From Candidatus Undinarchaeales archaeon (GTDB lineage: Archaea; SpSt-1190; JASMDC01), in contig JASMDC010000017.1 of NCBI GenBank assembly GCA_030753015.1, forward strand, positions 1-64,000: 64,000 nt of DNA, read 5' to 3'. The notes under the pieces were generated by a model. The model was not told the origin of the DNA. It was given only the letters and a program-made list of their open reading frames with translations, and did no database searches. A program made the translations under genes and the position numbers. Below are positions 1 through 14,441 of the stretch, piece after piece. Each line of letters begins with the position of its first letter. Within the stretch, counting starts at the first letter, position 1.

Positions 1-32
1 GGGCCGCGTCTGTGAGTCCTTATCCGTTGTAC
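1..32. repeat. 3' end of an attC-like site truncated by the window edge
   Basis: Ends CCTTATCC-GTTGTAC, like the CCTTGACC-GTTATCT and CCTTGGCC-GTTATAC ends of the two full copies; GTTGTACGC (26-34) is the exact reverse complement of GCGTACAAC (283-291). Confidence 0.6.
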
Positions 33-284
33 GCCATCCGCGCAGTGGCATTTGTTTCTCTTTGAATGCTTCTATCCTCAGGGGTATATTGGCCAAGGTC
101 CAGAGACAGCTTCGTGTCACCATCAAGAATGTGGTTGCCCCTCCAGACCTCTGATTAAACGCATAAGCCTGTGCCGCTCAGACTGGGCTCCCAAGCTCGA
201 GGTCCAGCAGAAGTATTGATGTACTGGGCAATATCGCTGGGTCGATCCACGCTGGACGACCACGCTACGACACGACGGACGAGC

Positions 285-426
285 GTACAACAACCGGCCT
301 TCTAGCTCCGGGCCGCTGAGACGGCCCTCCGCCCACACGCCCCCGAATATCCTGGAGCCTCGCTGGTTTGAGCTTCGCTACAGATTCGTGTTACGTGGGC
401 GCGATAGAAGGCCTTGACCGTTATCT
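285..426. mobile_element. attC-like integron cassette recombination site (copy 1, 142 bp)
   Basis: Imperfect palindrome GTACAAC-aacc-GGCCTTCTA...TAGAAGGCC-ttgacc-GTTATCT; AAC/GTT core triplets; about 50 bp nearly identical to 713-855. Confidence 0.75.
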
Positions 427-532
427 GAAAGCCCCAATATATAATAATGAGTTAATTATTGATTAATAATAGATGACATGGGGAAAGACTAGGTATTTAA
501 CTTTAAATCTCCTATGATAGCATTGCCACCAA

Positions 533-618
533 GGGTGCAAGGGGAGCTTCACCGTATTTACGATTAGCCAAGCGCCGATGTCTTCCATTCGACTGCCTTG
601 ACCGCTCCCCTTGCATCC
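533..618. ncRNA. Putative structured small RNA / stem-loop in an ORF-less cassette
   Basis: 15-bp stem GGGTGCAAGGGGAGC (533-547) / GCTCCCCTTGCATCC (604-618), one G-U pair, 56-nt loop, in AT-rich DNA; TATA-like TTTAAA at ~502-507 (+) and TATAAA on the - strand at ~638-643. Confidence 0.35.
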
Positions 619-712
619 AAATCCTTATCATTCATCGTTTATAGAACAATAGTATCAACTTGTTTTGTCGGAGCATTTGTTAGGATAGCCACTTATGCTA
701 GGTGGGGCATAC

Positions 713-855
713 AGATAACAATCGGCCTTCTAGCTCCGGGCCGCTGAGACGGCCCTCCGCCAACACGCCCCCGCGGAGTTTGAACATCGCTTTAGGATAC
801 TTCGCATAAGGTGATCCTGGCGGGTACGCGTCATAGAAGGCCTTGGCCGTTATAC
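713..855. mobile_element. attC-like integron cassette recombination site (copy 2, 143 bp)
   Basis: AGATAAC-aatc-GGCCTTCTA...TAGAAGGCC-ttggcc-GTTATAC; CAGATAAC (712-719) is the exact reverse complement of GTTATCTG (420-427). Confidence 0.75.
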
Positions 856-884
856 GACAACGTTCCCCAAATGGAAAACCATAA

Positions 885-920
885 ATATACAAACATATAC
901 AAACATATACTTATGTATAC
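885..920 (+). promoter_or_regulatory. Phased operator-like repeats upstream of the TA operon
   Basis: ATATAC at 885, 895 and 905 and GTATAC at 915, with exact 10-bp periodicity, just upstream of the antitoxin start. Confidence 0.5.
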
Positions 921-949
921 AGATGTAAATCAATCTAAAGGTGGTCATT

Positions 950-1189
950 ATGGGAGCTACTACGATCAGGATACACGATGATACAAAGCATGATCTGGAT
1001 CTGTTAAGGGAATATCGGAATGAAAGTTATGATGAAGTTATTAAGAAAATCCTCTTTGTCATAAATACCTACAAGACCGAGCCTGAATTGAGCCAGGAGA
1101 CAATTGATTCGATCGAAAGAGCGAGGAAAAGGATGAAGAAAGGGGATTTCTTATCTGAAGAGGAAGCGAGAAAGAGGCTTGGCCTTTAA
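950..1189 (+). CDS. RelB-like (ribbon-helix-helix) antitoxin
   Basis: TTIRIHDDTK...ESYDEVIKK RHH-like N-terminus, C-terminal LSEEEARKRLGL; TAATG coupling to a relE-like gene; alternative GTG start at 941. Confidence 0.8.
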   Translation: MGATTIRIHDDTKHDLDLLREYRNESYDEVIKKILFVINTYKTEPELSQETIDSIERARKRMKKGDFLSEEEARKRLGL

Positions 1190-1442
1190 TGCATGAAATC
1201 AACTTTGATGAGGAAGTAATTGATACCCTCAAGAAATTACCAAAGCTACTAGAAAGAGGATTTTCAATAAGATCGTATCATCTAAAGAGAATCCCTTCTT
1301 GTTCTTTGAGAGATTAAAGGGGAGACGAGATTACAGAATGCGGATAGGGGATTTCAGGGTAATCGCAGATATCGATTCAAATCTGAAGAGGATCCAAGTG
1401 ACTTTGATCGGGCATAGGAAGAACATCTACAAGAGAATCTGA
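1189..1442 (+). pseudogene. RelE/ParE-family toxin with a -1 frameshift at ~1242
   Basis: ATG 1189 gives MHEINFDEEVIDTLKKLP and the frame stops at 1315-1317; the -1 frame continues KATRKRIFNKI...ERLKGRRDYRMRIGDFRVIADID...LIGHRKNIYKRI* (RelE motifs) to TGA 1440-1442. Confidence 0.85.
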
Positions 1443-1461
1443 TCGTGATAGAACGTCGGTC

Positions 1462-1600
1462 GCCTAACACAAAGGTATCCAGCTCCAGGCCTCCAGCCTT
1501 CCGCCCACACTCCGACTCATACATTATACGCAATCTGCTTCAGGAGTCTTTGGTATCATGAGATCCATCCTTGCACTTCGCCCTCAGAATCCTTTCCTGA
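1462..1600. repeat. Degenerate third attC-like copy
   Basis: Begins GCCTAAC (RYYYAAC), followed by CAGCTCCAGGCC and CCTTCCGCCCACAC resembling copies 1 and 2; no intact GTT end, so the right boundary is approximate. Confidence 0.45.
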
Positions 1601-1642
1601 CACTTCGTCCTTGAAATGGTCGTCATGATAGTCGCTTTCCTT

Positions 1643-2416
1643 TCAGCCGACCTCACGGGCCAGTGCCTCGCACGGGACGTCCACTCCAGCGGTCTGGGTG
1701 CGTCCAACGGGGGAGAGGCAGTACACCATCATGTCGCAGTCCACGAACGCCAGTGGGTAGCAGAGCTTGGTATCGCCCGCGCCCTCCATGCAGATCCGGC
1801 TCCCCTCCTCGATGGTGGCGGAGGTGCCCTCGCCCGGAGCACAGTACGGTCCGCGCCCTTCGCACCCGAGCACAGCGGTCCCGTCATCGCCCACGGTGAC
1901 GGTCCGCGCATAGTCCTCCAGTGCCACAGCGCACGGTCGCTCTGCACCGTTGGCGGAGGCGCACCCTGTCTGTCGCCAGCGCCCGATGGCCGAGCACTCG
2001 AGGTCGAGGTCCACGGCCCGTGGCGGAGGTGTAGGGCTTGCAGGGGTGGTGAGATGCGGTGCGGCCTGCGCGCCCGGAACGGTCTGGCGCTCCGTACGGA
2101 CAATAGGTCCCGGGACGGCCCCACTACCGGCTGTGATCCTCTCAAGTAGCCCCTGATGGAGCATCACGGCCAGCCCTGCGGCGAGGACCACCACGGCAAG
2201 GAGACCGACCACTGCACCCCAGGACCGTCCCTCGCTGACGGGTGCAGGAGGCTCCTCCCCACGCACCAGTGCCTCGGCCGTGGCCTCGTCGTACCCCATC
2301 TCGAGGAAGAGCTCCTTGACCTGCTCGGGCGGGTAGCCCATCTGCAGGTACTCCTGGGCATAGGATGCGTAGTAGCTGGAGCACTGGGCATCCCCCATCG
2401 GGAGGATACTCATCAC
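1643..2416 (-). CDS. Membrane-anchored Cys-rich hypothetical protein with N-terminal LxxG[YWF] helical domain
   Basis: 257-aa ORF; YLQMGYPPEQVKELFLEMGYD, one TM helix, Pro linker, Cys-rich C-terminus. Confidence 0.7.
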   Translation of the reverse strand: MMSILPMGDAQCSSYYASYAQEYLQMGYPPEQVKELFLEMGYDEATAEALVRGEEPPAPVSEGRSWGAVVGLLAVVVLAAGLAVMLHQGLLERITAGSGAVPGPIVRTERQTVPGAQAAPHLTTPASPTPPPRAVDLDLECSAIGRWRQTGCASANGAERPCAVALEDYARTVTVGDDGTAVLGCEGRGPYCAPGEGTSATIEEGSRICMEGAGDTKLCYPLAFVDCDMMVYCLSPVGRTQTAGVDVPCEALAREVG

Positions 2417-2453
2417 TAGTGCTTAAGTTGATTTCTATGGGATCTCTGCAAGC

Positions 2454-2981
2454 TCAGAGCTTCTCGAAGATGAGGTCTTTTGGGGGCATGCACATGGAGG
2501 CCACTGTGATGTGGAGCCGGTCCTCCTCGCCCTGGTAAATGGCAAGGGTCCGTGCGTCCATGGCGCGACCCTCGGATACTCGATATGCCTTGTTCCGCGC
2601 GAGGTAGTGGGACCCGGTGAAGGTCACGTCGAGCCATGTATCCTCGCTCATGCCGTTGCCCCGCCCCTGGAGATGGAGCCCCTGCTCGTCCTCGTAGATG
2701 AAGAGCTTCGGGGCCTCGGGGAGGAGTGAATCGGCCTGGATGAGGTAACCATTGTCCAGTTCCATATAGGAGCCGTTCTCGAACAGCGACTCCACGAGGT
2801 CGAGCTGGTTGTAGAGGGACTCGAGAGCTGCCCCGGGGACTGGTCTCAGTGAGCCGGCGAACCCGACGTTGTAGCCAGCGGCGGCGGGCGAGGCGAAGGG
2901 CTCGAACACCTCGAAATCCGATACGTCCAATCCGGTCCCGGCCTCGGCCGCGTCCATCTCGAGAAGGTACATGATCATCAC
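2454..2981 (-). CDS. Acidic hypothetical protein
   Basis: 175-aa ORF with an upstream BRE/TATA-like GAAAATGTTTAAAA on the - strand. Confidence 0.6.
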   Translation of the reverse strand: MMIMYLLEMDAAEAGTGLDVSDFEVFEPFASPAAAGYNVGFAGSLRPVPGAALESLYNQLDLVESLFENGSYMELDNGYLIQADSLLPEAPKLFIYEDEQGLHLQGRGNGMSEDTWLDVTFTGSHYLARNKAYRVSEGRAMDARTLAIYQGEEDRLHITVASMCMPPKDLIFEKL

Positions 2982-3180
2982 TTGTCCTTGCGAACGGAGG
3001 CGACAAGCGATGGTCCGTTTTTAAACATTTTCATTTGATTTGACACGAACTCGCACGATTTGGGCTTATTTGGGGAAAAAACGCCTATTAAGCCTTAATA
3101 ACTTCATTGAGCGTCTGTGAGACGTCAAAGCACACCGCATACTTTCATGCTATTTAACATTAATCACCGCAAGAGTGGTC

Positions 3181-4494
3181 ATGCGGGTGCTCCTCCTGGC
3201 CCCACGCGTGTCGGACGGCGAGTCCACCCTCCCTTTGGGGCTGGCCTACATCGCCGCCGTGCTCGAGGCCGACGGGTGCGAGGTCTTTGGGCGCGACCTC
3301 TCCTTCACAGGACCTGAGGATGTTGCCCGGGAGGCCGCCGACCTGGGGGTGGACGCGGTGCTCGCATCCTCTCTTACCAGCACCTTGGGCCAGGTCGCGG
3401 CCGCGTGCGATATGGTCCGATGCGCGACGGGGGCTCCCGTTGCACTGGGTGGCCCTCACGCGACCGCCCTTCCGGCGCACGCACTGGGCGCTGGTGACTT
3501 CGATGCCCTGATGGTGGGCGAGGGCGAGGACAGGGTGGTCCCGCTCGTCAGGGCATTGACGGGGAACGGCCGGTTGGCGCGCGTTCCCGGACTACTTCTC
3601 CCCGGCGGCATTTCGACAGGTCCCGCCCCGCTCCCTCCCGATCCAGACAGCCTTCCCTATCCTCGACGAGAGGCTTTCCCCGAGAGCCTGTACTCGGGGA
3701 TGCCCGCTCGGGGCCCGTACACTCCGCTTGTCACATCGCGCGGATGCCGTCGCCGGTGCGCTCACTGCCCTTCCCATTCCCTTGTGGGAGGTCCTCGACG
3801 ACGTTCTCCCGCCAACGTGGCAGATGAGGTGGAACACCTCCTCTCACGCGGTTACCGTGAGTTCCAGGTGGAGGATGATGGATTCGCCGAGGACCGGGGC
3901 CATGTGGTCGGTATATGTGATGCCTTTCGGGAGCGGGGATTGGACATCGACTGGGCGTGTACCAACGGACTCCATCCGGATGATCTGGACGAGGGCCTCC
4001 TCGCTGCCTTGGCAGAGACAGGTTGTTACTCGATCGCCCTGGGTATCGAGTCCCTTGACCGCTCGGTCCTCGCAACCCTGTGCCGACCTATGGACCTGGA
4101 GAGGATCGCAGGACTTGTCCGTGCGGCCCATGACCACGGTATGGAGGTCAGTGGTTACTTCATGCTCGGCCTTCCGGGGACTGTGCTCAATGACGGAGGG
4201 CTCCTGGCCGACGAGGCACTCGCCCTTGATCTCGACACGGCCCATTTCTCTGTGTTCTCGCCCTTACCCGGCTCCCCCATATTCTCCCGTTTGATAGCGG
4301 AAGGAGCATCAGTGGACGAGCTGGTGGCCGGTAACGTCCCTGGGATGGACCGGATCGCCCTCGATGCGGAGAGCGCTAGGGCATACCGCCGCTTCTACGC
4401 AGGGCGCAAGGGCGTGGCCGTGGTACACCAGGCCCTATCCACAGGCAGACCGTTCGAGCCGTTAGTCAAAAAGTTTAAAGGCTGGTTCCTCTAA
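3181..4494 (+). CDS. B12-binding radical SAM protein
   Basis: PLGLAYIAA, GGPHAT, GEGE, TSRGC with CRRRCAHC, IGIES, GYFMLGLPG; ATG at 3181 (GTG 3175 possible). Confidence 0.9.
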   Translation: MRVLLLAPRVSDGESTLPLGLAYIAAVLEADGCEVFGRDLSFTGPEDVAREAADLGVDAVLASSLTSTLGQVAAACDMVRCATGAPVALGGPHATALPAHALGAGDFDALMVGEGEDRVVPLVRALTGNGRLARVPGLLLPGGISTGPAPLPPDPDSLPYPRREAFPESLYSGMPARGPYTPLVTSRGCRRRCAHCPSHSLVGGPRRRSPANVADEVEHLLSRGYREFQVEDDGFAEDRGHVVGICDAFRERGLDIDWACTNGLHPDDLDEGLLAALAETGCYSIALGIESLDRSVLATLCRPMDLERIAGLVRAAHDHGMEVSGYFMLGLPGTVLNDGGLLADEALALDLDTAHFSVFSPLPGSPIFSRLIAEGASVDELVAGNVPGMDRIALDAESARAYRRFYAGRKGVAVVHQALSTGRPFEPLVKKFKGWFL

Positions 4495-4504
4495 TCCCCA
4501 CCTT

Positions 4505-5920
4505 ATGGCCGAGCGCGTCCTGTTCCTTCGGGCCGATCCGGAACGGCTCTCGCCAGGACATCATCCGCGCAACTCCTACCCCTCCATGAACATCCGCTAT
4601 AGTGCCTCCGTGGCCATGGCCATGGGGTACGATGTGGACGTCATCGACATGGCAGCGAGCCTGCCGAGCGGCACACTGGCCGAGTCTGTGGCCGCAGCAC
4701 GACCAGACGTGGTACTGTGCGATGTAATCACCCCTGCCGTCCAGTTCACCCTCGACGCCGTCGAGCGGATCGGGGTTCCGGTCATCGCCCTGGGACAGCA
4801 TCCGTCAGCGCTCCCGCGGACGCTCCTCGATAGAGAGGGTCCGGTGGATGCCTGTATCGTGGGCGAGCCCGAACGCACGCTCCAAGAGGCGCTACCCTAC
4901 GTCATGGCGGGAGACCTATCGTCCCTCGCTGGTATGGCCGGGCTCGTTGTCCGGTCACCTGACGGTCCCATCGAAGGGCCGTCCCGTCCACCTATCGAGC
5001 GGCTCGATGAGCTTCCCTACCAGGCACACACCTCCCACCATGGGAGCTACTACACACACTATCCCATTCGGACCAGGGGCCGCCGCCGGTTCGGTTTCAT
5101 CGAGGCGGGCCGTGGATGCCCGCATTCGTGCTTATTCTGTTCACAGACGCTGCGCATCTCCTACGGCAAATGCGTTCGACTGCGATCGCACGAGAGCGTG
5201 GCCGCCGAGGTCGAGTACCTCGTCCGGGAGCTCGACGTGAACGCGCTGGTGTTCCTCGACGATGCCTTCTGTCTCGATCACAGGTTCGCTCACGGCATCT
5301 GCGACTCCCTTATCGAGCGAGGGCTCAACGACAAGGTCTCATGGCTCGTGCAGACCCGGGTCGACGCCGTGGACGAGGACCTCCTGACCCACATGCACGA
5401 GGCCGGCTGTTCCACCGTGTGCTTCGGTGTCGAGTCGGGCAGCCAGCGTGTGCTCGACACATTGCGCAAGGGCGTCACCCTCGACCGGATCCGGACAGCT
5501 TTCCAAGCGGCACATGATGCGGGCCTGCTCAGGGTCGGGTTCTTCATGCTCGGCAATCCGACCGAGACCCGAGAGGAGCTGGAGAGCACCATGGCCTTCT
5601 GCCGTGAGCTGGCCCCGGACTTTATCCAGGTCGCGTTCTTCACGGCGTATCCGGGCTCGGCCGCTTGGGCGGAATGGGGCGACACGACGGACTACGACTC
5701 CTACACCCACTATAACGCCGTGATTAGCAACAGGAGCCAGATGAGCAACGACGAACTGGTTGAGCTCCATCGGCGGTTCTACCTAAGCTTCCTGTCCCGC
5801 CCCCAATTCGTCGCACGCTACGCCCGCTACCGCCTGCCCCGGGCCCTTGCGAACTGGCGCGAGGAGGCAGAGCTGATGCGGACGGCGCTCGGGTTCTTTA
5901 CGTCCCACCACGAGGATTAG
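4505..5920 (+). CDS. B12-binding radical SAM protein
   Basis: GQHPS, GEPE, GRGC with CPHSCLFC, FLDDAF, FGVESGSQRVL, FFMLGNPTET. Confidence 0.92.
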   Translation: MAERVLFLRADPERLSPGHHPRNSYPSMNIRYSASVAMAMGYDVDVIDMAASLPSGTLAESVAAARPDVVLCDVITPAVQFTLDAVERIGVPVIALGQHPSALPRTLLDREGPVDACIVGEPERTLQEALPYVMAGDLSSLAGMAGLVVRSPDGPIEGPSRPPIERLDELPYQAHTSHHGSYYTHYPIRTRGRRRFGFIEAGRGCPHSCLFCSQTLRISYGKCVRLRSHESVAAEVEYLVRELDVNALVFLDDAFCLDHRFAHGICDSLIERGLNDKVSWLVQTRVDAVDEDLLTHMHEAGCSTVCFGVESGSQRVLDTLRKGVTLDRIRTAFQAAHDAGLLRVGFFMLGNPTETREELESTMAFCRELAPDFIQVAFFTAYPGSAAWAEWGDTTDYDSYTHYNAVISNRSQMSNDELVELHRRFYLSFLSRPQFVARYARYRLPRALANWREEAELMRTALGFFTSHHED

Positions 5921-8080: not shown

Positions 8081-9079
8081 TCATGTTCCCAACCTCCCTT
8101 TTTCTTTTTTAGTTCCCCAGGGTGTGGATTCGGTCCATACCCTGCGGAACTCTTTTTTGAAGCTCGCACCCAATCGCCCGTCCCGGATAACTAGGATGTT
8201 CTCGTCGTTCCCCATAAGTCCGCCCTTCGTCGGATTCGCCGAGCCGGTCATAACGGTCTCGTCATCGACGATGAATGTCTTGTGGTGCATCATACCCTTG
8301 TTCCCATCGGCCCTGACATCGCCGCCCGCAGACTGGACCGCAGTGCATCGTTCCCAGCGTCGCGCCTGTACGCGTTCGCATACTCCTGATACCGAGACCC
8401 CCCGATGGACGGCCCGGATCAGCGCGTCGGCCACGGCGCCGTCGGTGAAGGAGAAGGCAAGGAACCGGACATCCCGCTCAGCACCGTCTATCACGTCGAC
8501 GATCAGCTCACGGCAGCCATCGTCGGGGCAGAACGCGACATGGAAGGGCGTCCCACCCAGCTCCATCACGGGATCTACAGTGGGGTCTCCCGCGGAGAAC
8601 ACACCTTCCCATAGCTCCTCGAACTCAGCATTGTAGGCGGCCGCCAGGAGCCGTGAGCGTACTTGGAGGAGGACGTTATCGTTCCGCGCCGCGCCCCTAC
8701 CCGTCGGATTAAAGGAACAGGTCACGACCAGCTGGTCATCGATGATGCAGAACTTGTTGTGCATCAGTGCGCGCTCAGCATGTCCCCATCGGACCGGGAT
8801 CCCCGCCGGTCCGTCTCTCCCATGTACGACCACACGCGCGCTGGTTCGTCTGAGGGCGGCGACCACGGCTGGATGATCTACATCATAGAAAGCACAGCTC
8901 ACCGAGCGATGTGCTGAGAGGATCGCAGCGGCCAGGATATCCCCACAAGGCTCGCGCGGACAGAAGTGCACTGTTGGTGTAGGGGCAGCCTCATATGGGA
9001 TGCTGGGTTCCTGCCAATAAGCGGCCACAGCGACGCACACCACAAGGATGATAATCGGTAGAAGAGGCCTTAGTCCCAT
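8081..9079 (-). CDS. Secreted or membrane-anchored phospholipase D-like (two HKD) nuclease/phosphodiesterase
   Basis: MHNKFCIID...SFN and MHHKTFIVD...GSAN; N-terminal hydrophobic helix from ATG 9079. Confidence 0.9.
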   Translation of the reverse strand: MGLRPLLPIIILVVCVAVAAYWQEPSIPYEAAPTPTVHFCPREPCGDILAAAILSAHRSVSCAFYDVDHPAVVAALRRTSARVVVHGRDGPAGIPVRWGHAERALMHNKFCIIDDQLVVTCSFNPTGRGAARNDNVLLQVRSRLLAAAYNAEFEELWEGVFSAGDPTVDPVMELGGTPFHVAFCPDDGCRELIVDVIDGAERDVRFLAFSFTDGAVADALIRAVHRGVSVSGVCERVQARRWERCTAVQSAGGDVRADGNKGMMHHKTFIVDDETVMTGSANPTKGGLMGNDENILVIRDGRLGASFKKEFRRVWTESTPWGTKKEKGRLGT

Positions 9080-9134
9080 GAAAAGAAAGGCGGTCTGACA
9101 AACCTTTTTAAACCTGCGACGGGAACGTTCCACT

Positions 9135-10661
9135 ATGTCGGAATCCCTGGCGTCCTATGTGGCACAGCTGATGCGCCAGGGATACACGAACGACCAGGTG
9201 ATAGAGACCCTGCGGGAGCAGGGATGGGATAAGAAGGCTATCACTGAGGCCCTTGAGCAGGCAGCAGTGCTCGCAGATCAGCCGGATCCGCGGCTCGCAT
9301 CCTTTCCCAAGCCCTTGATCCCGCCGGTGGTAGTAGCCGGAGCCCTGGGTCTCGTTGTCGTGCTCGTGTTCGTATCCATGTTCATGGGCGGATCGGAGCC
9401 AGTACCGGTGGAACCGACACCCACACCGCGCCCTACTCCCGAACCTACCCCCGAAACAACGGTGGTACCCACACCCACGCCGAAACCGGAACCGAAAGGC
9501 TTGGGTGTCGACCTGATCGGAGTGACCGTACGCTCCAAGGACGAGACACAGTTCGTCCACCGGGACTTTACCGTTGACGCGATCAAGCTCGTGTACGATG
9601 TCCTCTCCGCACCTGGCGCCCAGGAGCGCTACGAGTCTATCCAGAAATTCGTGGGCTATTGTCAGAACAGGACCTTCCCTAATCCCGAGCTCGACCGTGA
9701 GCTCGAGGAAATGGATAAGGACATGGAGAACTACAAGTTCTACTTAGAGACGAACAACATCCCCAAGGCCACCGAGGTGCTGGAAAGCGATATCTTCGGA
9801 AGGTTCAGCGCTAAGAGTGTCGAGGGACCGCTGCCCGTCACCGTCTCGCTGAGCTACGGGACCGGCCTTGTCCTCAACCTCACCTCCACGACCAATCTCA
9901 TAGGCGTTAACACGCTCTGGGAGACGTCCCATCTGATCCAATCGAACATCCCTGACGACGTGTGGACCGGAGTATGGGACGAGGCGTGGAAGAACACGTT
10001 CCCCGCGGACGCCGACCGCTCGTCCTTCACTGTGGACATCCTCTACCTTGACCCGACCTCGCTCGAAGTGACCAGGCCGCGGGCGGCGGACTTCCGGTAC
10101 TACGGGAAGAGCGGTCTGCGACCGCTCCAGGGGAACGGCTACACGATCCCAAGCTTCGAGGCCGTGCTCGTCTACCTGATCGGCGGCGAGGTGTGCACCC
10201 AGACCGAGCGAACATGGTCCGGCGCGAAGGTCGGACAGTGGTCGTGCTCCGAGAGGGTGAAGGAGGGCGAGTTCTTCGTCAAGAAGAACGTGACCTTCGC
10301 GTTCCTTGATCTATCTCCCGTGCAGGGGGACCTCACGGCGGTCTACCGTACCGAGCTCAAGGCGAGCATCGGCGGCAATCCCATCGACTTCACGTTCCTA
10401 TTCCTTGAGGGGAAGGAGCCCTTCTCCGAATCATCGGTCACCGACCTCCTTGAGAAGCTCAAGCTCAAGATCTACGGTGAGCCGAAGACGGAAGGGACGG
10501 CAAAATGTCCCATCCATGTTGTTGACACCTTCACGGACGCACCGGTCAGGTACGTGGCCGCCGTTGCCGTCGGAGAGTACATGATGGTGATGTACGCCGA
10601 CGACAAGCCCAATCCCGCCTACTTCCGCAGCATAGCCGACGCGCTGTGCGCCAAGGTCTAG
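9135..10661 (+). CDS. Membrane-anchored surface protein with N-terminal LxxG[YWF] helical domain and PT linker
   Basis: LMRQGYTNDQVIETLREQGWD, TM helix, (PT/PE)n linker, large extracellular region. Confidence 0.8.
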   Translation: MSESLASYVAQLMRQGYTNDQVIETLREQGWDKKAITEALEQAAVLADQPDPRLASFPKPLIPPVVVAGALGLVVVLVFVSMFMGGSEPVPVEPTPTPRPTPEPTPETTVVPTPTPKPEPKGLGVDLIGVTVRSKDETQFVHRDFTVDAIKLVYDVLSAPGAQERYESIQKFVGYCQNRTFPNPELDRELEEMDKDMENYKFYLETNNIPKATEVLESDIFGRFSAKSVEGPLPVTVSLSYGTGLVLNLTSTTNLIGVNTLWETSHLIQSNIPDDVWTGVWDEAWKNTFPADADRSSFTVDILYLDPTSLEVTRPRAADFRYYGKSGLRPLQGNGYTIPSFEAVLVYLIGGEVCTQTERTWSGAKVGQWSCSERVKEGEFFVKKNVTFAFLDLSPVQGDLTAVYRTELKASIGGNPIDFTFLFLEGKEPFSESSVTDLLEKLKLKIYGEPKTEGTAKCPIHVVDTFTDAPVRYVAAVAVGEYMMVMYADDKPNPAYFRSIADALCAKV

Positions 10662-11458
10662 ACCGGTACCTGAGGGGACTCGACCATTCGGTCGATGCCC
10701 ATGTGCACAAGCTCATCCTCGCTGGGGAGGGCGTCGTTCTTGGCGAACACAGCACATCCCTTGAGATAGAGGGGCACACCCATGGTAGGATGGTCGAGAC
10801 GGAAGAGCGAATCCTTGCAAGCCTGGGTGCAGGGGAACACGCCCCACTCGGGCCGTCCGGGGCGGGTAGAGGCGAGCCCTACCAGGCAGTACCTGCTGAT
10901 GGTGACGAACACGTACGGGTGATGGAATGAGCCATGAAAGGGATTCTTTCCCTCACCCAGGCGAAGGGAGACGCCTTGGAAGGGATTCTCCACCTCAACC
11001 CGGCGGACGCCACGCGAAGCTAGCAGGCTGCGCACCACGGGGACGTCCATGTTGGTCGTGCGGAACCGCTCCCAGGCTTCGGTCGTTAGGGCCTCCTTTG
11101 CTAGCATGAGGCGCGGACCACGCTTCTGCTTATGGATGATGCCGCCTACCACGGGCTCGAGCCGGCCCTCCTCGGCGACAACGTCGATCACACCCCAGTC
11201 GTTGGCGACGATCTCGGTACCGTCGGGGAGTTCGGCAAGGAGGGGCTTCAGCCGTGCAATGCCATCCTGTGTGACGGGCGGTGTGACGAAGGTGACGGCC
11301 ACACCCGCGTCATCAGCTCTCTTAAGGGCGCCTGTGAGCTCGGTGCGTGTGGGCATGAGGCGCTGGCAATAGCCGTTTCCCAGGTAGAGCCGGTCGTGCC
11401 CGGTCCAGTCGATTGTGTCCAACAACGCCACACGGGCGACGATGATCGCACGCTCCAT
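10658..11458 (-). CDS. U32-family partner subunit (UbiV-like Fe-S protein)
   Basis: RLYLGNGYCQRL, VTPPV, IVANDWG, SRYC...PCTQAC; TGATG coupling to the upstream U32 gene. Confidence 0.75.
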   Translation of the reverse strand: MERAIIVARVALLDTIDWTGHDRLYLGNGYCQRLMPTRTELTGALKRADDAGVAVTFVTPPVTQDGIARLKPLLAELPDGTEIVANDWGVIDVVAEEGRLEPVVGGIIHKQKRGPRLMLAKEALTTEAWERFRTTNMDVPVVRSLLASRGVRRVEVENPFQGVSLRLGEGKNPFHGSFHHPYVFVTISRYCLVGLASTRPGRPEWGVFPCTQACKDSLFRLDHPTMGVPLYLKGCAVFAKNDALPSEDELVHMGIDRMVESPQVPV

Positions 11459-12555
11459 CACCTCACCACCTCGGGCCAATAGCACTCGGCGGCCGAGCAG
11501 TTCCAGCCATAGAGCTCCATGTACAGGGCCCTGCATCGTTCCATGTATGCAGTACTGTCCTCCGATCCCTCGAGCTCCTCCAGCGCACGGCGCACGAGGA
11601 TGACGTCGTCCACCTTCTTGCTCGTGGGATGGATCCTGCCCTGGATCTTCAAGACGCTGATGCCCGCGTCGCGCATAGCGCCCAGGCCGCAGATACCGCA
11701 TCCGCTACCGCCCCAGTTGGGCGACCATTGCAGGCCGAACCGTTCCTGAACGGCTGTGGCGAGCTCATCGCTCCCCTCCAGGGGTTCGACATGGACCGCC
11801 GAGGAATTGAGGCAGAGATGGGTGGATGCTATACGCGCCACCGGTCCGGAGTACTGGACGGTCTTTGGGATGTGCCGCATGGCGCGAACGAGGTGCGCCC
11901 TGCTGCGGCCCAGACGGGGATTGAGGAGAGCCCACATCCCCTTTGCAGTGTCCTTGTGCCTGATCTCGGTAAGACCGTGGAAATAGGTGCACAGCCCCTC
12001 CACATAGGGGCAACGGGCGTTGAGCACGAATCCCTCAAGGGTGATGTCGGGGGCCGCTTGGGCTATGTCGGCGATCTCCTTGATGGAGAGGTGATGGGGG
12101 AGGATCACACGTGAGGCGCCTAGACGTTGGTAGAACCGGGCGGCCTGGGCGTTGAACACCGCGTTGATGGTGCTGACGTGGATATCGATGCCCACGTCGT
12201 TGTCGTGGAGGTGGGACATGAGGCCAAGATCGGCAACGATGAGGGCGTCAGCTTCCGCAGCGATGGCCTCCTCGACCTCCTCGACGAGATGTGTGAACTG
12301 TGCAGCGGAGTAGAAGTCCTGGTTAAATGCGACGTTCACGCGTATACCGAGGTCATGAGCGATGGTCAGGGCCTTGCGCAGTTCGTCATAGGACTGCATG
12401 GACGAGCGGGTGTACATCTCGCGGCTGACGCCTCCCATGTGAGTGTAGCGCTTGCGCCACCGCTCGGAGAGCACGGCGCAGTACAGTTCTGTGGCTCCCG
12501 CACGGGCGAGGGGTTCCACCTCCTCGGCCCGGTTGATGGGAGCAAGGATGTCCAT
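11458..12555 (-). CDS. Peptidase U32 family protein (Fe-S hydroxylase-like)
   Basis: ILAP, AGATELY, DALIVADLG, IHVST, GASRVIL, CPYVEGLC, CGIC, LKIQGR. Confidence 0.9.
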   Translation of the reverse strand: MDILAPINRAEEVEPLARAGATELYCAVLSERWRKRYTHMGGVSREMYTRSSMQSYDELRKALTIAHDLGIRVNVAFNQDFYSAAQFTHLVEEVEEAIAAEADALIVADLGLMSHLHDNDVGIDIHVSTINAVFNAQAARFYQRLGASRVILPHHLSIKEIADIAQAAPDITLEGFVLNARCPYVEGLCTYFHGLTEIRHKDTAKGMWALLNPRLGRSRAHLVRAMRHIPKTVQYSGPVARIASTHLCLNSSAVHVEPLEGSDELATAVQERFGLQWSPNWGGSGCGICGLGAMRDAGISVLKIQGRIHPTSKKVDDVILVRRALEELEGSEDSTAYMERCRALYMELYGWNCSAAECYWPEVVR

Positions 12556-12641
12556 CGCAAGCTTCCCCAACGGACAGGTATAAATGTGCTTCGACAGGGC
12601 TCCGCCGTGAGCACCCAATAAAAACGATGAACGCGCATCCA

Positions 12642-14441
12642 ATGCTTGTAATGGAGCCCGCGCTCTCGGTGGACGATCCTTTCGGTGTACTGGAACGACT
12701 GGAGTCCATGGCCTTCGAGCCCTCCGAGTGGCACGACCTCAACCTCGCTGCTCACGGGCTCTCCCTGACGGGACAGTTCGAGCGTGCAGCCATCGTCGAA
12801 CGTGTCAAGCAGAAGATACGCATCCTCCCACACCAGATCGAGACGGCGCTGCGTGTGCTCAATGACCTTGGTCATCGCGCATTATTGGCCGATGAGGTCG
12901 GGCTGGGCAAGACAGTGGAAGCGGGTATCGTGCTCAAGGAGTACCTCGTCCGTGGGCTTGTGGAACGCGTGCTCATCCTTACTCCCGCTCCTCTGGTCCG
13001 CCAGTGGCAGGGAGAGCTCGAAGAGAAGTTCGGTGAAGGGTTCATCACTCCTCTTGACGAGGGGTTCCGTGGGTTCGAGAAGGAGGACCGTCTCATCTGC
13101 TCAATGGACAGAGCCCGTCAGCCCAAGAACGCCCCCTTTGTCCAGGCCCGTCCCTGGGACCTACTCATCGTGGACGAGGCTCATCGTCTGCGCAACGTGG
13201 AGACCAAACTCCACCAGTTCGTGGCGGGGATCGACGCCCGTTACTTCCTAATGCTCACCGCGACACCCATCCAGAACAACCTCTTCGAGCTGTTCAACCT
13301 CATAGACCTCCTCAAACCGGGTCATCTGGGTACGCGGAACCAGTTCGCGGTCTATTTCGTGGGGGACCGTAAGGCACAGACGCTCGAGAACGAGGGGGAG
13401 CTGCGAGAGCTGCTGGGCCAGGTCATGGTGCGCAACCGCCGCGCCGAGGTCGGACTTCAGCTCCCCGACCGACACGTCCACGACATCATGCTTGATCCTT
13501 CTCCCCAGGAGGCCGAGCTGTACCGTCGGGTCATCGGATACATAGCGGACATGTACGACGAGGTGGACGAGGGCGCGGAGTTCGACGCTGAAGAGGCCCG
13601 TCGGACCACCCGTGGTATCGACCTGCTGCGGCTCATGACGCTCGAGCGTGAGCTCGTGTCGTCCAGCCAAGCCCTGGCCGCCACTCTGCGCAAGATAATC
13701 CCGCGCGAGCCCGATCCCGAGAAACGCGTGCTCTTGGACGAGCTGTACGAGCTGTGCCTGTCGGCCCGGGACAGCACCAAGGCTTGCCATCTCTTGGAGC
13801 TCGCTCGGCGCTTGGACACTCCCCTCATCGTGTTCACGCAGTTCATCTCCACCCAGGAGCACCTGCGGGGACGTCTGGAGGCCGCAGGCTTGGCGCCCGT
13901 GGTGTTCAACGGCAGCATGTCACCATCCGACAAGGAGTCCGCTATCCAGCGTTTCAAGGAGCGGGGCGGTGTGCTCCTGTGCACTGACTCGGGGAGCGAG
14001 GGCCGGAACCTCCAGTTCGCCAACGTGCTGGTGAACTACGATCTTCCCTGGAATCCCATGCGTCTGGAGCAGCGTATCGGCCGGATCCACCGCATTGGCC
14101 AGGAACGGGACGTGCATGTGTTCAACCTCACGCTCGCGGGTACGATCGAGGACCACATCCTGACAACGCTCTATCGCAAGATCGACCTCGTCACCGCGGC
14201 CGTGGGCGACATGGACCTTATCCTTTCCAAGCTGCCCGATGGCGTGTCGTTCGAGCGCCGGTTGTTCGAGCTGTCGCTGCGCATCAAGGACAAGCGTTCC
14301 TTCGACGAGGGGATGAAGGGGCTCGCTGATGAGATGGCGGAGGCCAAGGAGCTGGCTGCAAAGGTGCACCAGTTGGATGCCCGGGTGCTCGAGCGCTTCG
14401 ACCTATCGTCCCTGGAGGACGCGGGGGTGCGTATCAAGTGA
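12642..14441 (+). CDS. SNF2-family helicase (YqhH/HepA-like)
   Basis: LLADEVGLGKT, DEAH, LTATPIQN, SEGRNLQ, YDLPWNPMRLEQRIGRIHRIGQ; the start could be 12627 or 12651. Confidence 0.93.
   Translation: MLVMEPALSVDDPFGVLERLESMAFEPSEWHDLNLAAHGLSLTGQFERAAIVERVKQKIRILPHQIETALRVLNDLGHRALLADEVGLGKTVEAGIVLKEYLVRGLVERVLILTPAPLVRQWQGELEEKFGEGFITPLDEGFRGFEKEDRLICSMDRARQPKNAPFVQARPWDLLIVDEAHRLRNVETKLHQFVAGIDARYFLMLTATPIQNNLFELFNLIDLLKPGHLGTRNQFAVYFVGDRKAQTLENEGELRELLGQVMVRNRRAEVGLQLPDRHVHDIMLDPSPQEAELYRRVIGYIADMYDEVDEGAEFDAEEARRTTRGIDLLRLMTLERELVSSSQALAATLRKIIPREPDPEKRVLLDELYELCLSARDSTKACHLLELARRLDTPLIVFTQFISTQEHLRGRLEAAGLAPVVFNGSMSPSDKESAIQRFKERGGVLLCTDSGSEGRNLQFANVLVNYDLPWNPMRLEQRIGRIHRIGQERDVHVFNLTLAGTIEDHILTTLYRKIDLVTAAVGDMDLILSKLPDGVSFERRLFELSLRIKDKRSFDEGMKGLADEMAEAKELAAKVHQLDARVLERFDLSSLEDAGVRIK

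Follow-up and report, generated by a model that had tools for sequence, protein, structure and literature searches.

A probable integron-type cassette array in an archaeal genome and IntI relatives without the IntI-specific insertion

The window analysed here, a stretch of 64,000 nucleotides from a Candidatus Undinarchaeales archaeon, opens with attC-like sites and short cassettes (positions 1–1564) that are probably the distal end of a chromosomal integron-type array, with an IntI relative lacking the IntI-specific insertion as its presumed recombinase. This reading draws on what was observed here: the array itself, covariation in the structure of its sites, a crossover signature, synteny around the integrases and the missing insertion. 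A cassette would be a once-circular unit, made of a short, often AT-rich insert and an imperfect palindrome of 125–151 nt (the attC-like site), and would enter the array through site-specific recombination at the G|TT of the R' box; because of insertion at this point, the seven bases after GTT would complement the seven before AAC of the same cassette. The exchanges would be carried out by the IntI-related recombinases of the genome on sites acting as folded single strands, and an N-terminal domain of these proteins may stand in for the I2 helix by contributing to recognition of the folded or branched site.

The array at the start of the window

The initial annotation, made from the letters alone, had described four related palindromic elements in this region (one truncated, two intact and one decayed). 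All of them are present at the positions it gave, amounting to four attC-like sites within 1.6 kb, according to our own model, and three cassettes. The features are the following.

1..28, + strand: attC-like 3' end, cut by the contig start; GTT at 26–28; nhmmer match at 2–43 against profile positions 121–162
26..291, + strand: cassette 1, from GTTGTACGCC to GCGTACAAC; GC 54.5%; R'/R'' complementarity 6/7
282..429, + strand: attC-like site 1; covariance model 133.7 bits, E 9e-27, the site being among the model's 23 seed sites; fold and covariation; R'' 285–291 (AAC 289–291), spacer 292–295, L'' 296–304, side hairpin 310–315/322–327, inner stem, then L' 405–413, spacer 414–419, R' from GTT 420–422
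420..719, + strand: cassette 2, from GTTATCTG to CAGATAAC; interior GC 40.7%; R'/R'' complementarity 6/7
710..858, + strand: attC-like site 2; AAC 717–719, GTT 849–851; 125.2 bits, also among the model's 23 seed sites
849..1468, + strand: cassette 3, from GTTATACGAC to GTCGCCTAAC; interior GC 38.0%; carries a toxin-antitoxin pair; R'/R'' complementarity 5/7
941..1189, + strand: antitoxin-like ORF, 82 aa, of DUF7557/ribbon-helix-helix type; DUF7557 E 4e-4 and VapB E 0.005, both below the Pfam cut-offs
1189..1442, + strand: ParE/RelE-like toxin gene, frameshifted into two ORFs (1189–1317 and 1299–1442)
1459..1564, + strand: decayed terminal attC-like site at the array end; 33.8 bits, E 2.5e-4; nhmmer match at 1457–1510, E 1.6e-7
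1643..2416, − strand: first gene of host composition past the array, 257 aa; no family match; GC 0.62–0.72 from 1601 on

The copy at 1–28 is incomplete because the window begins at base 1 of its contig (C26:1–64000). Between the two intact sites, identity reaches 96% in the 5' arm (57 nt compared) and 88% in the 3' arm (26 nt compared); the length of these sites, first given as 142–143 bp, was roughly right, with 134 and 135 nt measured from AAC to GTT. The decayed copy has kept its 5' half (R'', L'', side hairpin and CCGCCCACAC) and lost its 3' half, and a stable fold is absent from it (z +0.55). The complementarities proposed between the cores that open and close each cassette were all recovered: GTTGTACGC at 26 pairs with GCGTACAAC at 283–291, GTTATCTG at 420 with CAGATAAC at 712–719, and GTTATACGAC at 849 with GTCGCCTAAC at 1459–1468 (8/10).

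Cassettes 2 and 3 are, as had been claimed, far more AT-rich than the host, whose GC content is 61.1% (window positions 2000–64000). No ORF with family support was found in cassette 1, of which a diverged paralogue lies behind another attC at C115:1244–1502; likewise, no supported ORF was found in cassette 2, which contains a G/C-rich inverted repeat (533–547/604–618; 15-nt arms, 93% complementary). The toxin-antitoxin pair announced for one of the cassettes is real, but its toxin gene is split by the frameshift. A 47-aa piece of this toxin matched ParE_toxin below the cut-off (E 0.0026), and the toxin also matched (E 8e-5) that of a cassette on C23, which carries a DUF7557 and ParE pair. The orthologue of cassette 3 in the sister species (G001; 86% DNA identity) is located in a different array and contains intact ORFs of 79 and 86 aa, the former orthologous to the antitoxin-like ORF and the latter to the toxin, there uninterrupted.

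The contig is archaeal, as indicated by LonB (890.6 bits; cut-off 516.6) and TYW1 (426.4 bits; cut-off 317.95), and the core of the initial annotation, an integron-type array with attC-type sites in an archaeal genome, holds. An archaeal SSU model found no match in the genome, and taxonomy was therefore drawn from proteins. The genome of the window (G000) is assembled in 117 contigs and is 98.9% complete; G001, its only congener and the sole other genome of the order, is ~99% complete. The first 3 kb of the window were found near-unchanged in 11 marine/seawater runs from 6 studies (at least 0.88 of the sampled words in each), and the organism is therefore no one-off; RNA runs contained 0.05–0.06 of the sampled words of the same 3 kb.

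Further copies of the element, which the initial annotation had suggested looking for, form arrays elsewhere in the genome. A two-round nhmmer search yielded 31 matches (E ≤ 1) on 10 contigs of G000. The covariance model R1 gave 28 matches in G000 (E ≤ 0.01), 23 of them by construction, 6 in G001 (E ≤ 1e-5) and none in the other 15 genomes of the class, so that 2/17 were positive. According to our own model, arrays of 5–6 sites are located on C53, C82 and C87, and single copies on C70 and at C29:180167–180315. A simple finder of attC sites by exact stems was dropped, as it missed most known sites (0 on C53 and C87) and matched both strands.

A TATA-binding protein gene (PF00352, E 1.6e-53) is the cargo of one cassette; archaeal-type genes therefore get packaged as cassettes. 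In one G001 array, the closest G000 counterparts of the cassettes are, by our count, spread over three different contigs, the matches being to C26 (86%), C53 (82%) and C53 (69%), and the host flank of that array matches C82 (82% over 3.2 kb). Counterparts of the same cassettes in different arrays of the two species speak for mobility.

Excised circles had been proposed as a check on reads, and no clean excision or circle junction was found in Logan contigs (four runs of four studies, contigs only). In X9, a junction going back from 846 to 24, with loose ends at 856, joins a 3' end of the attC-717 type to a start of the cassette-1 type; this junction is absent from the assembly and may be explained by a further copy in the genome, a tandem arrangement or a circle. 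A second joint, skipping 432 nt (317 to 750, with TGAAG in between), was considered as an excision and rejected, as it corresponds to the paralogous attC of C115 spanning two copies.

Integrases without the IntI-specific insertion and their genomic setting

IntI-related tyrosine recombinases are encoded in G000 by two intact genes on C31, one gene with an in-frame stop (TAG) on C76 and one remnant on C53, and in G001 by a single gene. The curated IntI model TIGR02249 (cut-off 265 bits) gave seven partial matches in G000 and three in G001, none of them above the cut-off, with the coverage breaking at model positions 181–233; the 377-aa protein encoded at C31:1441–2571 reached 220.4 bits. The best solved relative of the recombinase is VchIntIA (2a3v, E 2.9e-44), where query residues 97–257 align with IntI 10–172 and residues 281–363 with IntI 238–320, and 23 residues of the query stand where VchIntIA has 65. 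The missing part is the IntI-specific insertion of ~41 residues (the I2 helix region near patch III). The spacing between GKGxKDR and HTLRHSFA is 65–66 residues here, compared to 107–110 in 14 canonical IntIs from the same search. All members of the family alignment share the catalytic R-K-H-R-H-Y residues, and the recombinases also retain an IntI-like C-terminus (SPLD). In a quick tree, which left out ORFs shorter than 260 aa or with a stop, including the C76 integrase, the archaeal proteins were placed next to the canonical IntI clade (SH-aLRT 88, in an unrooted and weakly supported topology). The claim that the cassettes were integrated by IntI stands in so far as the recombinases are IntI-related; it fails in that they are devoid of the IntI-specific insertion and score below the curated cut-off.

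The archaeal integrases carry an N-terminal alpha/beta domain of ~75 residues (AF2 model, pLDDT 77), which weakly resembles the branched-DNA-binding domains of UvsW, XPB and HARP. Alignment of the model with VIA-align returned the N-terminal domain of T4 UvsW (Z 7.7 and 7.5; for 1rif, Z 7.7 and rmsd 2.0 over 62 residues), that of XPB (Z 6.2 for 2fz4, and 5.8) and the HARP domain of SMARCAL1 (Z 3.7, 4o66), a best Z of 7–8 being typical for models without a true match. Nothing was found at E ≤ 0.001 when the domain was searched with Foldseek against the PDB (best E 0.22), the Atlas structure rows included SNF2/HARP proteins (TM 0.78–0.80), and Pfam HARP was matched below the cut-off (E 0.06–0.07) in two homologues only.

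A common gene order surrounds these genes at three G000 loci and one G001 locus: integrase, resident toxin-antitoxin pair, attI-like site and cassettes follow one another on one strand. The attI-like site, a candidate insertion site beside the integrase gene, is made of three or four repeated heptamers and ends in ...ATATGCACTA|GTTA. At C53:12708 the junction reads ...ATATGCACTA|GTTAGACGCA, where GTTAGACGCA is the exact reverse complement (10/10) of the first attC's R''; this position is ~870 nt downstream of the integrase remnant, past RHH-like and PemK/MazF genes. The same stretch was found again at C23:3468–3576 (92.7% over 109 nt), heading another array, and at the end of G001:C14 (89% over 73 nt), a contig that ends in ...GTTA, ~1.4 kb downstream of the only such integrase of that species. 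A variant with the ATATGCACTA|GTTA junction is located downstream of the integrase on C76. On C31, the two intact integrase genes are directly adjoined by a paralogue of the gene that follows the window array (1643–2416). According to the initial annotation the orientation of the array could not be fixed. It does follow from the direction of the cassette ORFs and from the integrases that are co-oriented on other contigs: the platform is expected left of the window, with the array ending near 1564.

The window array is joined to no integrase, as the contig starts inside an attC and shows no 77-mer link to other contigs. Neither this array nor that of C82 has an integrase on the array side of its contig; both match the CALIN definition (at least 2 attC, no IntI) and would be filed as CALINs if the published attC model recognises them. 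An ordinary CALIN would imply that a canonical IntI, now lost, unassembled or acting in trans, built the arrays, and that the insertion-less recombinases are unrelated to them, serving for instance in Xer dimer resolution or in another mobile element. We consider this explanation unlikely. The assembly is indeed fragmented and the window array begins at a contig end, but neither genome, at the completeness given above, encodes an IntI above the cut-off. Most archaeal integrons reported are CALINs, with six IntIs in 75 genomes according to the accessible text of PMC9668308, and Cury et al., in the accessible part of their work, decided in favour of this explanation for their 50 cases; here, however, the order of integrase, toxin-antitoxin pair, attI-like junction and cassettes is found at the four archaeal loci and at eight bacterial ones, and the C53 junction exactly complements the R'' of the first cassette. 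Finally, one copy, the 377-aa protein, passes the XerA model NF040815 just above its cut-off (224.7 vs 220 bits), whereas a Xer protein for dimer resolution would be expected in single copy and without an extra N-terminal domain. With archaeal XerA (NF040815; 4a8e, 5hxy) the recombinases share the two-domain core, and the 377-aa protein aligns end to end with the XerA structures. Unlike XerA, they are multi-copy with pseudogenised copies, possess the N-terminal domain and are always found near toxin-antitoxin genes and cassette arrays; the recombinase scores 155 bits against IntI and 133–134 bits against the XerA structures.

Structure of the sites and the crossover signature

Alignment of the sites revealed pairing in 87.4% of 389 pair cells of the stems, compared to 66.4% in shuffles (0/500 as high) and at most 55% in a control in which the arms were slid by 1–3 columns. 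Double (compensatory) changes were detected in 17/17 stem pairs, among them 7/7 pairs of the L''/L' arms, where 83.9% of the cells are paired; the inner stem and the side hairpin also covary. The asymmetries of the site are conserved, with a 5' spacer of 4–5 nt against a 3' spacer of 6–7 nt, and with a side hairpin confined to a single arm. The stems contain ~19 G-T cells and ~24 A-C cells, which favours neither strand as the folding one. As the initial annotation had suspected, no conserved extrahelical base is visible in the L stem of the aligned sites, which fits the lack, in the present recombinases, of the region with which IntI reads such bases.

The cross-cassette complementarity put forward as a signature of integration proved to be genome-wide. 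The R' of one site and the R'' of the next agree at a mean of 5.4/7 positions over 15 cassettes (6, 6 and 5 in those of the window), compared to a mean of 3.3/7 between R' and R'' within 19 sites. The cross-cassette sum was reached by 0/100,000 permutations in a test that left out the C87 pair across the weak site 2240–2371, the tandem partial site 4978–5114 and the last site of C82, the degenerate sites of C24 and the two singletons, and in which the wrap-around pair of C115, a unit of 1,559 bp, assumes that this contig is a circle or a tandem. The integron consensus is RYYYAAC for the inverse core and GTTRRRY for the core. In our sites the triplets are kept (AAC in 22/23, GTT in 20/23), as are R..YAAC (23/23) and GTTR..Y (17/22); the full consensus is seldom met (RYYYAAC in 3/23, GTTRRRY in 4/22), and an AAC-N6-GTT geometry is visible in several sites.

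Covariation of the L''/L' arms across many sequences is what base-pairing would produce, and not what would be expected if a protein read a fixed sequence. Together with the covariation of the inner stem and side hairpin, and with R boxes that are chimeric as in classical integrons, it argues against a classical chemistry in which double-stranded core sites AAC-N6-(G/C)TT (R plus L box) would undergo two strand exchanges, as in Xer/dif-flanked modules. We regard such a chemistry as improbable, even though it would suit an enzyme without the I2 helix (the element with which IntI, according to the accessible text of PMC7790495, docks extrahelical bases and prevents a second exchange), and would also suit sites in which extrahelical bases are not evident and the AAC-N6-GTT geometry is found.

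That the sites are a dispersed non-autonomous repeat (MITE/REP-like) or a structured small-RNA family without cassette recombination, the alternative that the initial annotation had named as refuting its reading, is very improbable: the conservation of a structured ~140-nt repeat, the covariation of its stems and the singletons at C70 and C29:180167–180315 would agree with it, but the copies are co-oriented in arrays and bound AT-rich inserts, no target-site duplications were seen at them, the same cassettes occur in different arrays of two species, the complementarity is cross-cassette and not within-site, which neither a transposing MITE nor an RNA gene produces, and Rfam gave no notable match for window positions 1–3000 (E ≤ 10; four chance-level rows, best E 2.6 among 4227 families).

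Bacterial counterparts and relation to known integrons

A search with a single integrase as query returned only two distant Bacillales loci (25–26% identity), and an alignment query returned 80 homologue loci, of which the 65 of at least 4 kb were used to count cassette chains. Chains of at least two cassettes with exact 10-nt complementarity, a count that is strand-blind by design, were detected in 8/65 loci compared to 2/195 shuffles; chains allowing one mismatch were dropped, as they were no better than the shuffles, in which chains of up to 9 appeared. A canonical IntI is present in two of the chain loci (L156 and L179) and an insertion-less integrase in the other six (L125, L136, L151, L154, L169 and L176). 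L133 and L124, added from repeat alignments, bring the insertion-less bacterial loci to eight, distributed among Bacteroidota, Gemmatimonadota, Ignavibacteriota and Latescibacterota. All eight integrases score 175–251 bits with TIGR02249, below the 265-bit cut-off. The first cassette starts 35–71 nt past the end of the integrase ORF in L136, L151 and L169 and ~330 nt past it in L125, and the archaeal model R1 matches 6/7 Gemmatimonadaceae sites (E 1e-7 to 0.02). Judged from these sequences, the archaeal arrangement is one that recurs in the eight bacterial loci. In two of them, L124 (318 aa) and L125 (316 aa), the N-terminal domain is absent from the integrase ORF as called, and therefore it cannot be strictly required.

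With classical integrons (IntI/attI/attC; VchIntIA, 2a3v), the elements described here share tandem co-oriented cassettes, many of them with toxin-antitoxin pairs, and AAC...GTT-bounded imperfect palindromes built of an R box, an unpaired spacer, an L stem and a variable centre. They also share the chimeric R boxes (G|TT crossover), an insertion site by the recombinase gene and sites that are much alike within a genome, and IntI is the best solved relative of the recombinase. They differ in that the recombinase lacks the ~41-residue insertion, scores below the IntI cut-off and has an extra N-terminal domain, in that the integrase is co-oriented with the array and separated from the attI-like site by a toxin-antitoxin pair, and in that the sites are long (125–151 nt), with a conserved side hairpin, no evident extrahelical bases and only rarely the full 7-nt consensus.

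Archaeal integrons have been known since 2022 (PMC9668308). The integrons and CALINs of Ghaly et al. are likewise chromosomal cassette arrays rich in toxin-antitoxin genes; the accessible text of that paper attributes the IntI-specific domain to their six IntIs, which by that description differ from ours. Its supplementary tables, as accessible, list 0 occurrences in Undinarchaeota, the group of the nearest named relative here (L033). Published integrons whose integrase is co-oriented with the array resemble ours in orientation; those integrases were detected by an IntI-specific profile, according to the accessible descriptions, and therefore carry the insertion that is absent here. The present proteins would fall in or next to the 'integron-like' subgroup of simple tyrosine recombinases (Smyshlyaev et al. 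2021, PMC8138268), whose accessible text holds the insertion to be essential for integron function and does not tie the insertion-less members to cassette arrays. Similarly, I2 is described in the accessible text of PMC7790495 as required for cassette capture, and the I2 helix as the invention enabling recombination of single-stranded attC. An I2-less integrase platform tied to cassette arrays appears to be undescribed: no mention was found in the literature searched, to which subscription journals and supplements may add.

These comparisons give hints of an unrecognised integron class, also present in several bacterial phyla. More specifically, and as a tentative proposal, the insertion-less IntI relatives, mostly with a UvsW/XPB/HARP-like domain, might constitute a second widespread class of integron integrases in Archaea and four bacterial phyla, capturing and shuffling attC cassettes without I2. 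These enzymes could also reflect a stage preceding the acquisition of I2.

In surveys, an integrase with the IntI-specific insertion is what defines an integron. Here, in two archaeal species and at eight bacterial loci from four phyla, insertion-less recombinases head arrays that show most of the DNA hallmarks of integron cassettes. If a second class does exist, many 'CALINs lacking an integrase' would be complete integrons. If these enzymes do the job, part of the 'integrase-less' arrays would have an unrecognised integrase, there would be a second solution for the recognition of folded attC DNA, and the origin of IntI would become testable with living intermediates. For the Archaea, the finding adds a lineage beyond those reported, together with a complete putative platform (integrase, attI-like site and cassettes) and not attC clusters alone.

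The cassette array and its attC-like repeat family

Contig C26, of which the window is the first 64 kb, belongs to an assembly of 117 contigs and 3.85 Mb. One repeat was found in four copies within window positions 1-1564:

1-28: 3' stub of the repeat, cut by the contig start
282-429: intact copy
710-858: intact copy
1459-1564: decayed copy, only the 5' half kept

The three inserts between these repeats have GC contents of 54.5%, 40.7% and 38.0%, compared with 61.1% for the rest of the contig, in line with the AT-richness that the initial annotation had ascribed to cassettes 2 and 3. The toxin-antitoxin pair that it had placed in one cassette stands in part: the third insert carries an antitoxin-like ORF of 82 aa and a ParE/RelE-like toxin gene, both with sub-threshold Pfam matches only, but the toxin gene is broken by a frameshift. 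In G001, the sole congener of the source genome G000, the orthologue of this cassette is 86% identical, with uninterrupted ORFs of 79 aa and 86 aa, and another G000 cassette encodes a DUF7557 and ParE pair above the Pfam cut-offs. G/C-rich inverted repeats, such as GGGTGCAAGGGGAGC / GCTCCCCTTGCATCC, were seen inside AT-rich cassettes devoid of ORFs (window 533-618; contig C115 at about 170-240, 480-560 and 910-960), and could represent small RNAs, terminators or sites for protein binding.

A two-round nhmmer search of G000 gave 31 matches on 10 contigs, and a covariance model (R1) was built from an alignment (A1) of 23 full-length copies. Further copies, whose absence the initial annotation had listed as counting against its integron reading, were recovered arrayed and co-oriented, R1 detecting 28 sites in G000 at E ≤ 0.01 (the 23 aligned copies are included by construction), and six in G001 at E ≤ 1e-5 plus two weaker ones. 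Co-oriented sites number five on C53, five to six each on C82 and C87, four on C26, two each on C23 and C29, and two to three on C115; outside the arrays there are two singletons and, on C24, two or three degenerate copies. The repeat was absent from the other 15 genomes of the class when searched with R1, and nothing resembling it was found in Rfam for window 1-3000.

In the consensus, the outer box R'' (R..YAAC) is followed by a spacer of 4-5 nt, an L stem of 7-9 bp, a G+C-rich side hairpin on the 5' arm only, a conserved CCAACACG running into the inner stem, and a variable centre; the return strands, a spacer of 6-7 nt and the outer box R' (GTTR..Y) complete the 3' side. Compensatory changes occur in 17 of 17 consensus pairs. 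Paired cells amount to 87.4%. Column shuffles give 66.4%, with none of 500 reaching the real value, and shifting the partner by 1-3 columns gives no more than 55%; the element therefore shows conservation of structure. Full matches to the published boxes are rare (RYYYAAC in 3 of 23 sites, GTTRRRY in 4 of 22), and the triplets are retained (AAC in 22 of 23, GTT in 20 of 23).

Crossover signature and the platform heading the arrays

In integrons the bases past the G/TT crossover belong to the next cassette, and therefore should complement the R'' at the far end of that cassette. The start of each cassette matched its own R'' at a mean of 5.4 of 7 positions (15 cassettes, seven arrays), the mean between R'' and R' within one site being 3.3 of 7 (19 sites), and none of 100,000 permutations gave a cross-cassette total as high as that observed; some sites, among them the degenerate C24 copies and the singletons, were excluded from this test. 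The window cassettes score 6, 6 and 5 of 7, and all the start/end complementarities reported for them in the initial annotation were found in the sequence at the coordinates given there. Complementarity of this kind across a cassette would not arise from a dispersed repeat or an RNA gene.

Along the array strand of C53, an integrase remnant is followed by an RHH-like ORF and a PemK/MazF gene, a repeat stretch and five cassettes. The stretch contains four CGGATAT-type repeats and ends in ...ATATGCACTA|GTTAGACGCA, the junction at which AT-rich DNA begins and where ten bases, counted from GTT, complement the R'' of the first cassette without a mismatch. The stretch recurs at the head of the C23 array (92.7% over 109 nt), which no longer has an integrase, and at the end of G001 contig C14 (89% over 73 nt), the G001 integrase lying about 1.4 kb upstream of it; that contig breaks exactly at ...GTTA. 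On C76, an integrase and a RelE-type pair precede a variant stretch with CGCATAT repeats and the same junction. The two intact integrase genes of C31 end 28 bases from a contig end, and on their other side lies a paralogue of the gene following the window array, which suggests that a single locus has C31 at one end and C26 at the other.

One cassette contains, opposite to the array strand, a complete gene for TATA-box-binding protein (L010:2203-2787, equivalent to C53:9702-10286; PF00352, E 1.6e-53), and an archaeal/eukaryotic-type transcription factor is therefore packaged there as an integron cassette.

Insertion-less recombinases in the archaeon and in bacteria

Searching G000 with TIGR02249, the curated integron-integrase model, revealed seven partial matches that represent four genes or remnants:

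Start of C31: two intact integrase-like genes in tandem
C76: integrase-like gene with an in-frame TAG
C53: integrase-like fragment

No match in G000 exceeded the cut-off, the gap in coverage always falling at model positions 181-233, and the single such gene of G001 was likewise below it. The closest solved relative of the 377-aa protein is the Vibrio integron integrase 2a3v (E 2.9e-44), to which it aligns in two pieces, with 23 residues in place of the 65 of IntI; with archaeal XerA structures the alignment is in one piece. Two flanking motifs are 65-66 residues apart; in 14 canonical IntIs from the same homologue search the distance is 107-110. Catalytic residues and an IntI-like SPLD C-terminus are invariant in the family alignment.

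The recombinase core is preceded by a domain of some 75 residues, in which two tryptophans are invariant. The AlphaFold model of this domain (pLDDT 77) gave no significant Foldseek match; among solved folds it was closest to the N-terminal domains of T4 UvsW (Z 7.7) and of archaeal XPB (Z 6.2), and the HARP domain of SMARCAL1 reached Z 3.7. A predicted-structure search returned SNF2/HARP proteins (TM 0.78-0.80), and Pfam HARP appeared in two homologues at E 0.06-0.07. Mason et al. are said to have described in PNAS in 2014 the UvsW, XPB and HARP domains as one structure-specific, branched-DNA-binding fold. Some Bacteroidales relatives carry this W...W domain in tandem (L121:3709-4167, L119:7476-8300), and the integrase of locus L151 has a leader of about 300 residues ahead of its core.

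A profile search for integrase homologues yielded 80 loci, and the 65 of at least 4 kb were examined for chains, defined as two or more cassettes whose start and end show perfect 10-nt complementarity. Chains were present at 8 of 65 loci, compared with 2 of 195 shuffles. Two have a textbook insertion-bearing IntI and served as positive controls (L156, L179); the other six have an integrase lacking the approximately 41-residue IntI-specific insertion (I2), one in Ignavibacteriota (L125) and five in Bacteroidota (L136, L151, L154, L169, L176). Repeat alignments added L133 of Gemmatimonadaceae, which has seven sites and, in three cassettes in a row, complementarity at 10 of 10 positions, and L124 of Latescibacterota, which has one cassette with a start that complements its R'' exactly. 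These eight insertion-less bacterial integrases score 175-251 bits, none above the IntI cut-off, and six of the eight have the N-terminal domain. The archaeal model R1 recognises 6 of the 7 Gemmatimonadaceae sites, so archaeal and bacterial site families are related. A quick tree, left unrooted, groups all 14 IntIs that have the insertion in a single clade (SH-aLRT 99) and places the archaeal proteins next to it with weak support (SH-aLRT 88); the insertion-less proteins linked to arrays fall at scattered positions, among other members of their own phyla.

Host, evidence of cassette movement and relation to published integrons

Judged from its genes for archaeal-type LonB (890.6 bits, cut-off 516.6) and TYW1 (426.4 bits, cut-off 317.95), C26 is an archaeal contig; the closest named public record by LonB, at 95% identity, is labelled Candidatus Undinarchaeota archaeon (L033). 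The order is represented in the genome library by G000 and G001 only. Genomes of this genus measure 3.6-3.8 Mb at about 60% GC, the other 15 of the class 0.6-1.2 Mb; either the lineage has unusually large genomes or its placement in the class is odd. Window 8081-14441, some 6 kb from the array, may be a defence island, to judge by a phospholipase-D/nuclease-like gene (DISARM DrmC model, E 2.6e-14, below cut-off) and a neighbouring SNF2-type helicase (DrmD models, about 245-250 bits, far under the cut-offs). Two B12-binding radical-SAM genes (439 and 471 aa) lie side by side at window 3175-5920, with family matches all far below cut-off.

In a single G001 array, the nearest G000 relatives of the cassettes are on C26 (86%), C53 (82%) and C53 (69%), counted here as three different G000 arrays, and the host flank of the same array is orthologous to that of the C82 array (82% over 3.2 kb). 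Window cassette 1 has a paralogue on C115, behind a different attC-like site. The first and last 77 bases of C115 (L018:1-1636; 1,636 bp) are identical, with no other k=77 overlap link, and the contig thus closes into a loop of 1,559 bp with two cassettes and two attC-like sites, explicable as a circle after excision, as a tandem duplication or as a collapsed repeat. The start of C87 (1-80) and the low-coordinate end of C82 (1-80) share the same stretch of about 80 nt, inverted and with one or two differences; it is another assembly-breaking repeat, possibly a mobile-element end.

Window 1-3000 was detected in marine/seawater metagenomes, at least 0.91 of sampled words being present in 10 runs from 5 studies and at least 0.88 in 11 runs from 6 studies; a wider set (X1-X17) comprises 17 such runs from 9 studies, 2017-2025, with 0.56-0.95 of sampled words. 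In this set the attC and cassette-1 parts reach 3-8 times the word depth of the flanking chromosome. Contigs from public runs contained one junction absent from the G000 assembly, and among those from marine runs no unambiguous excision product was found.

Integrons were described in Archaea in 2022, mostly as CALINs, in 75 genomes, the tables of that paper listing no Undinarchaeota (PMC9668308). The six archaeal IntIs that it reports are said to bear the IntI-specific domain, and their attI lies immediately downstream of intI, whereas the recombinases described here are insertion-less. Tyrosine recombinases lacking that domain beside attC sites were examined in the IntegronFinder paper and, in the portion available, judged not to be IntI (PMC4889954). 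I2 is held in the mechanistic literature to confer single-strand recombination and to be necessary for cassette capture (PMC7790495), and a classification paper, in its accessible part, says of an integron-like subgroup only that the insertion is 'not fully conserved' (PMC8138268). Our literature search found no publication linking insertion-less IntI relatives to cassette arrays. The window array is itself a new member of an already known kind; the platform heading such arrays appears to be a variant not described before.
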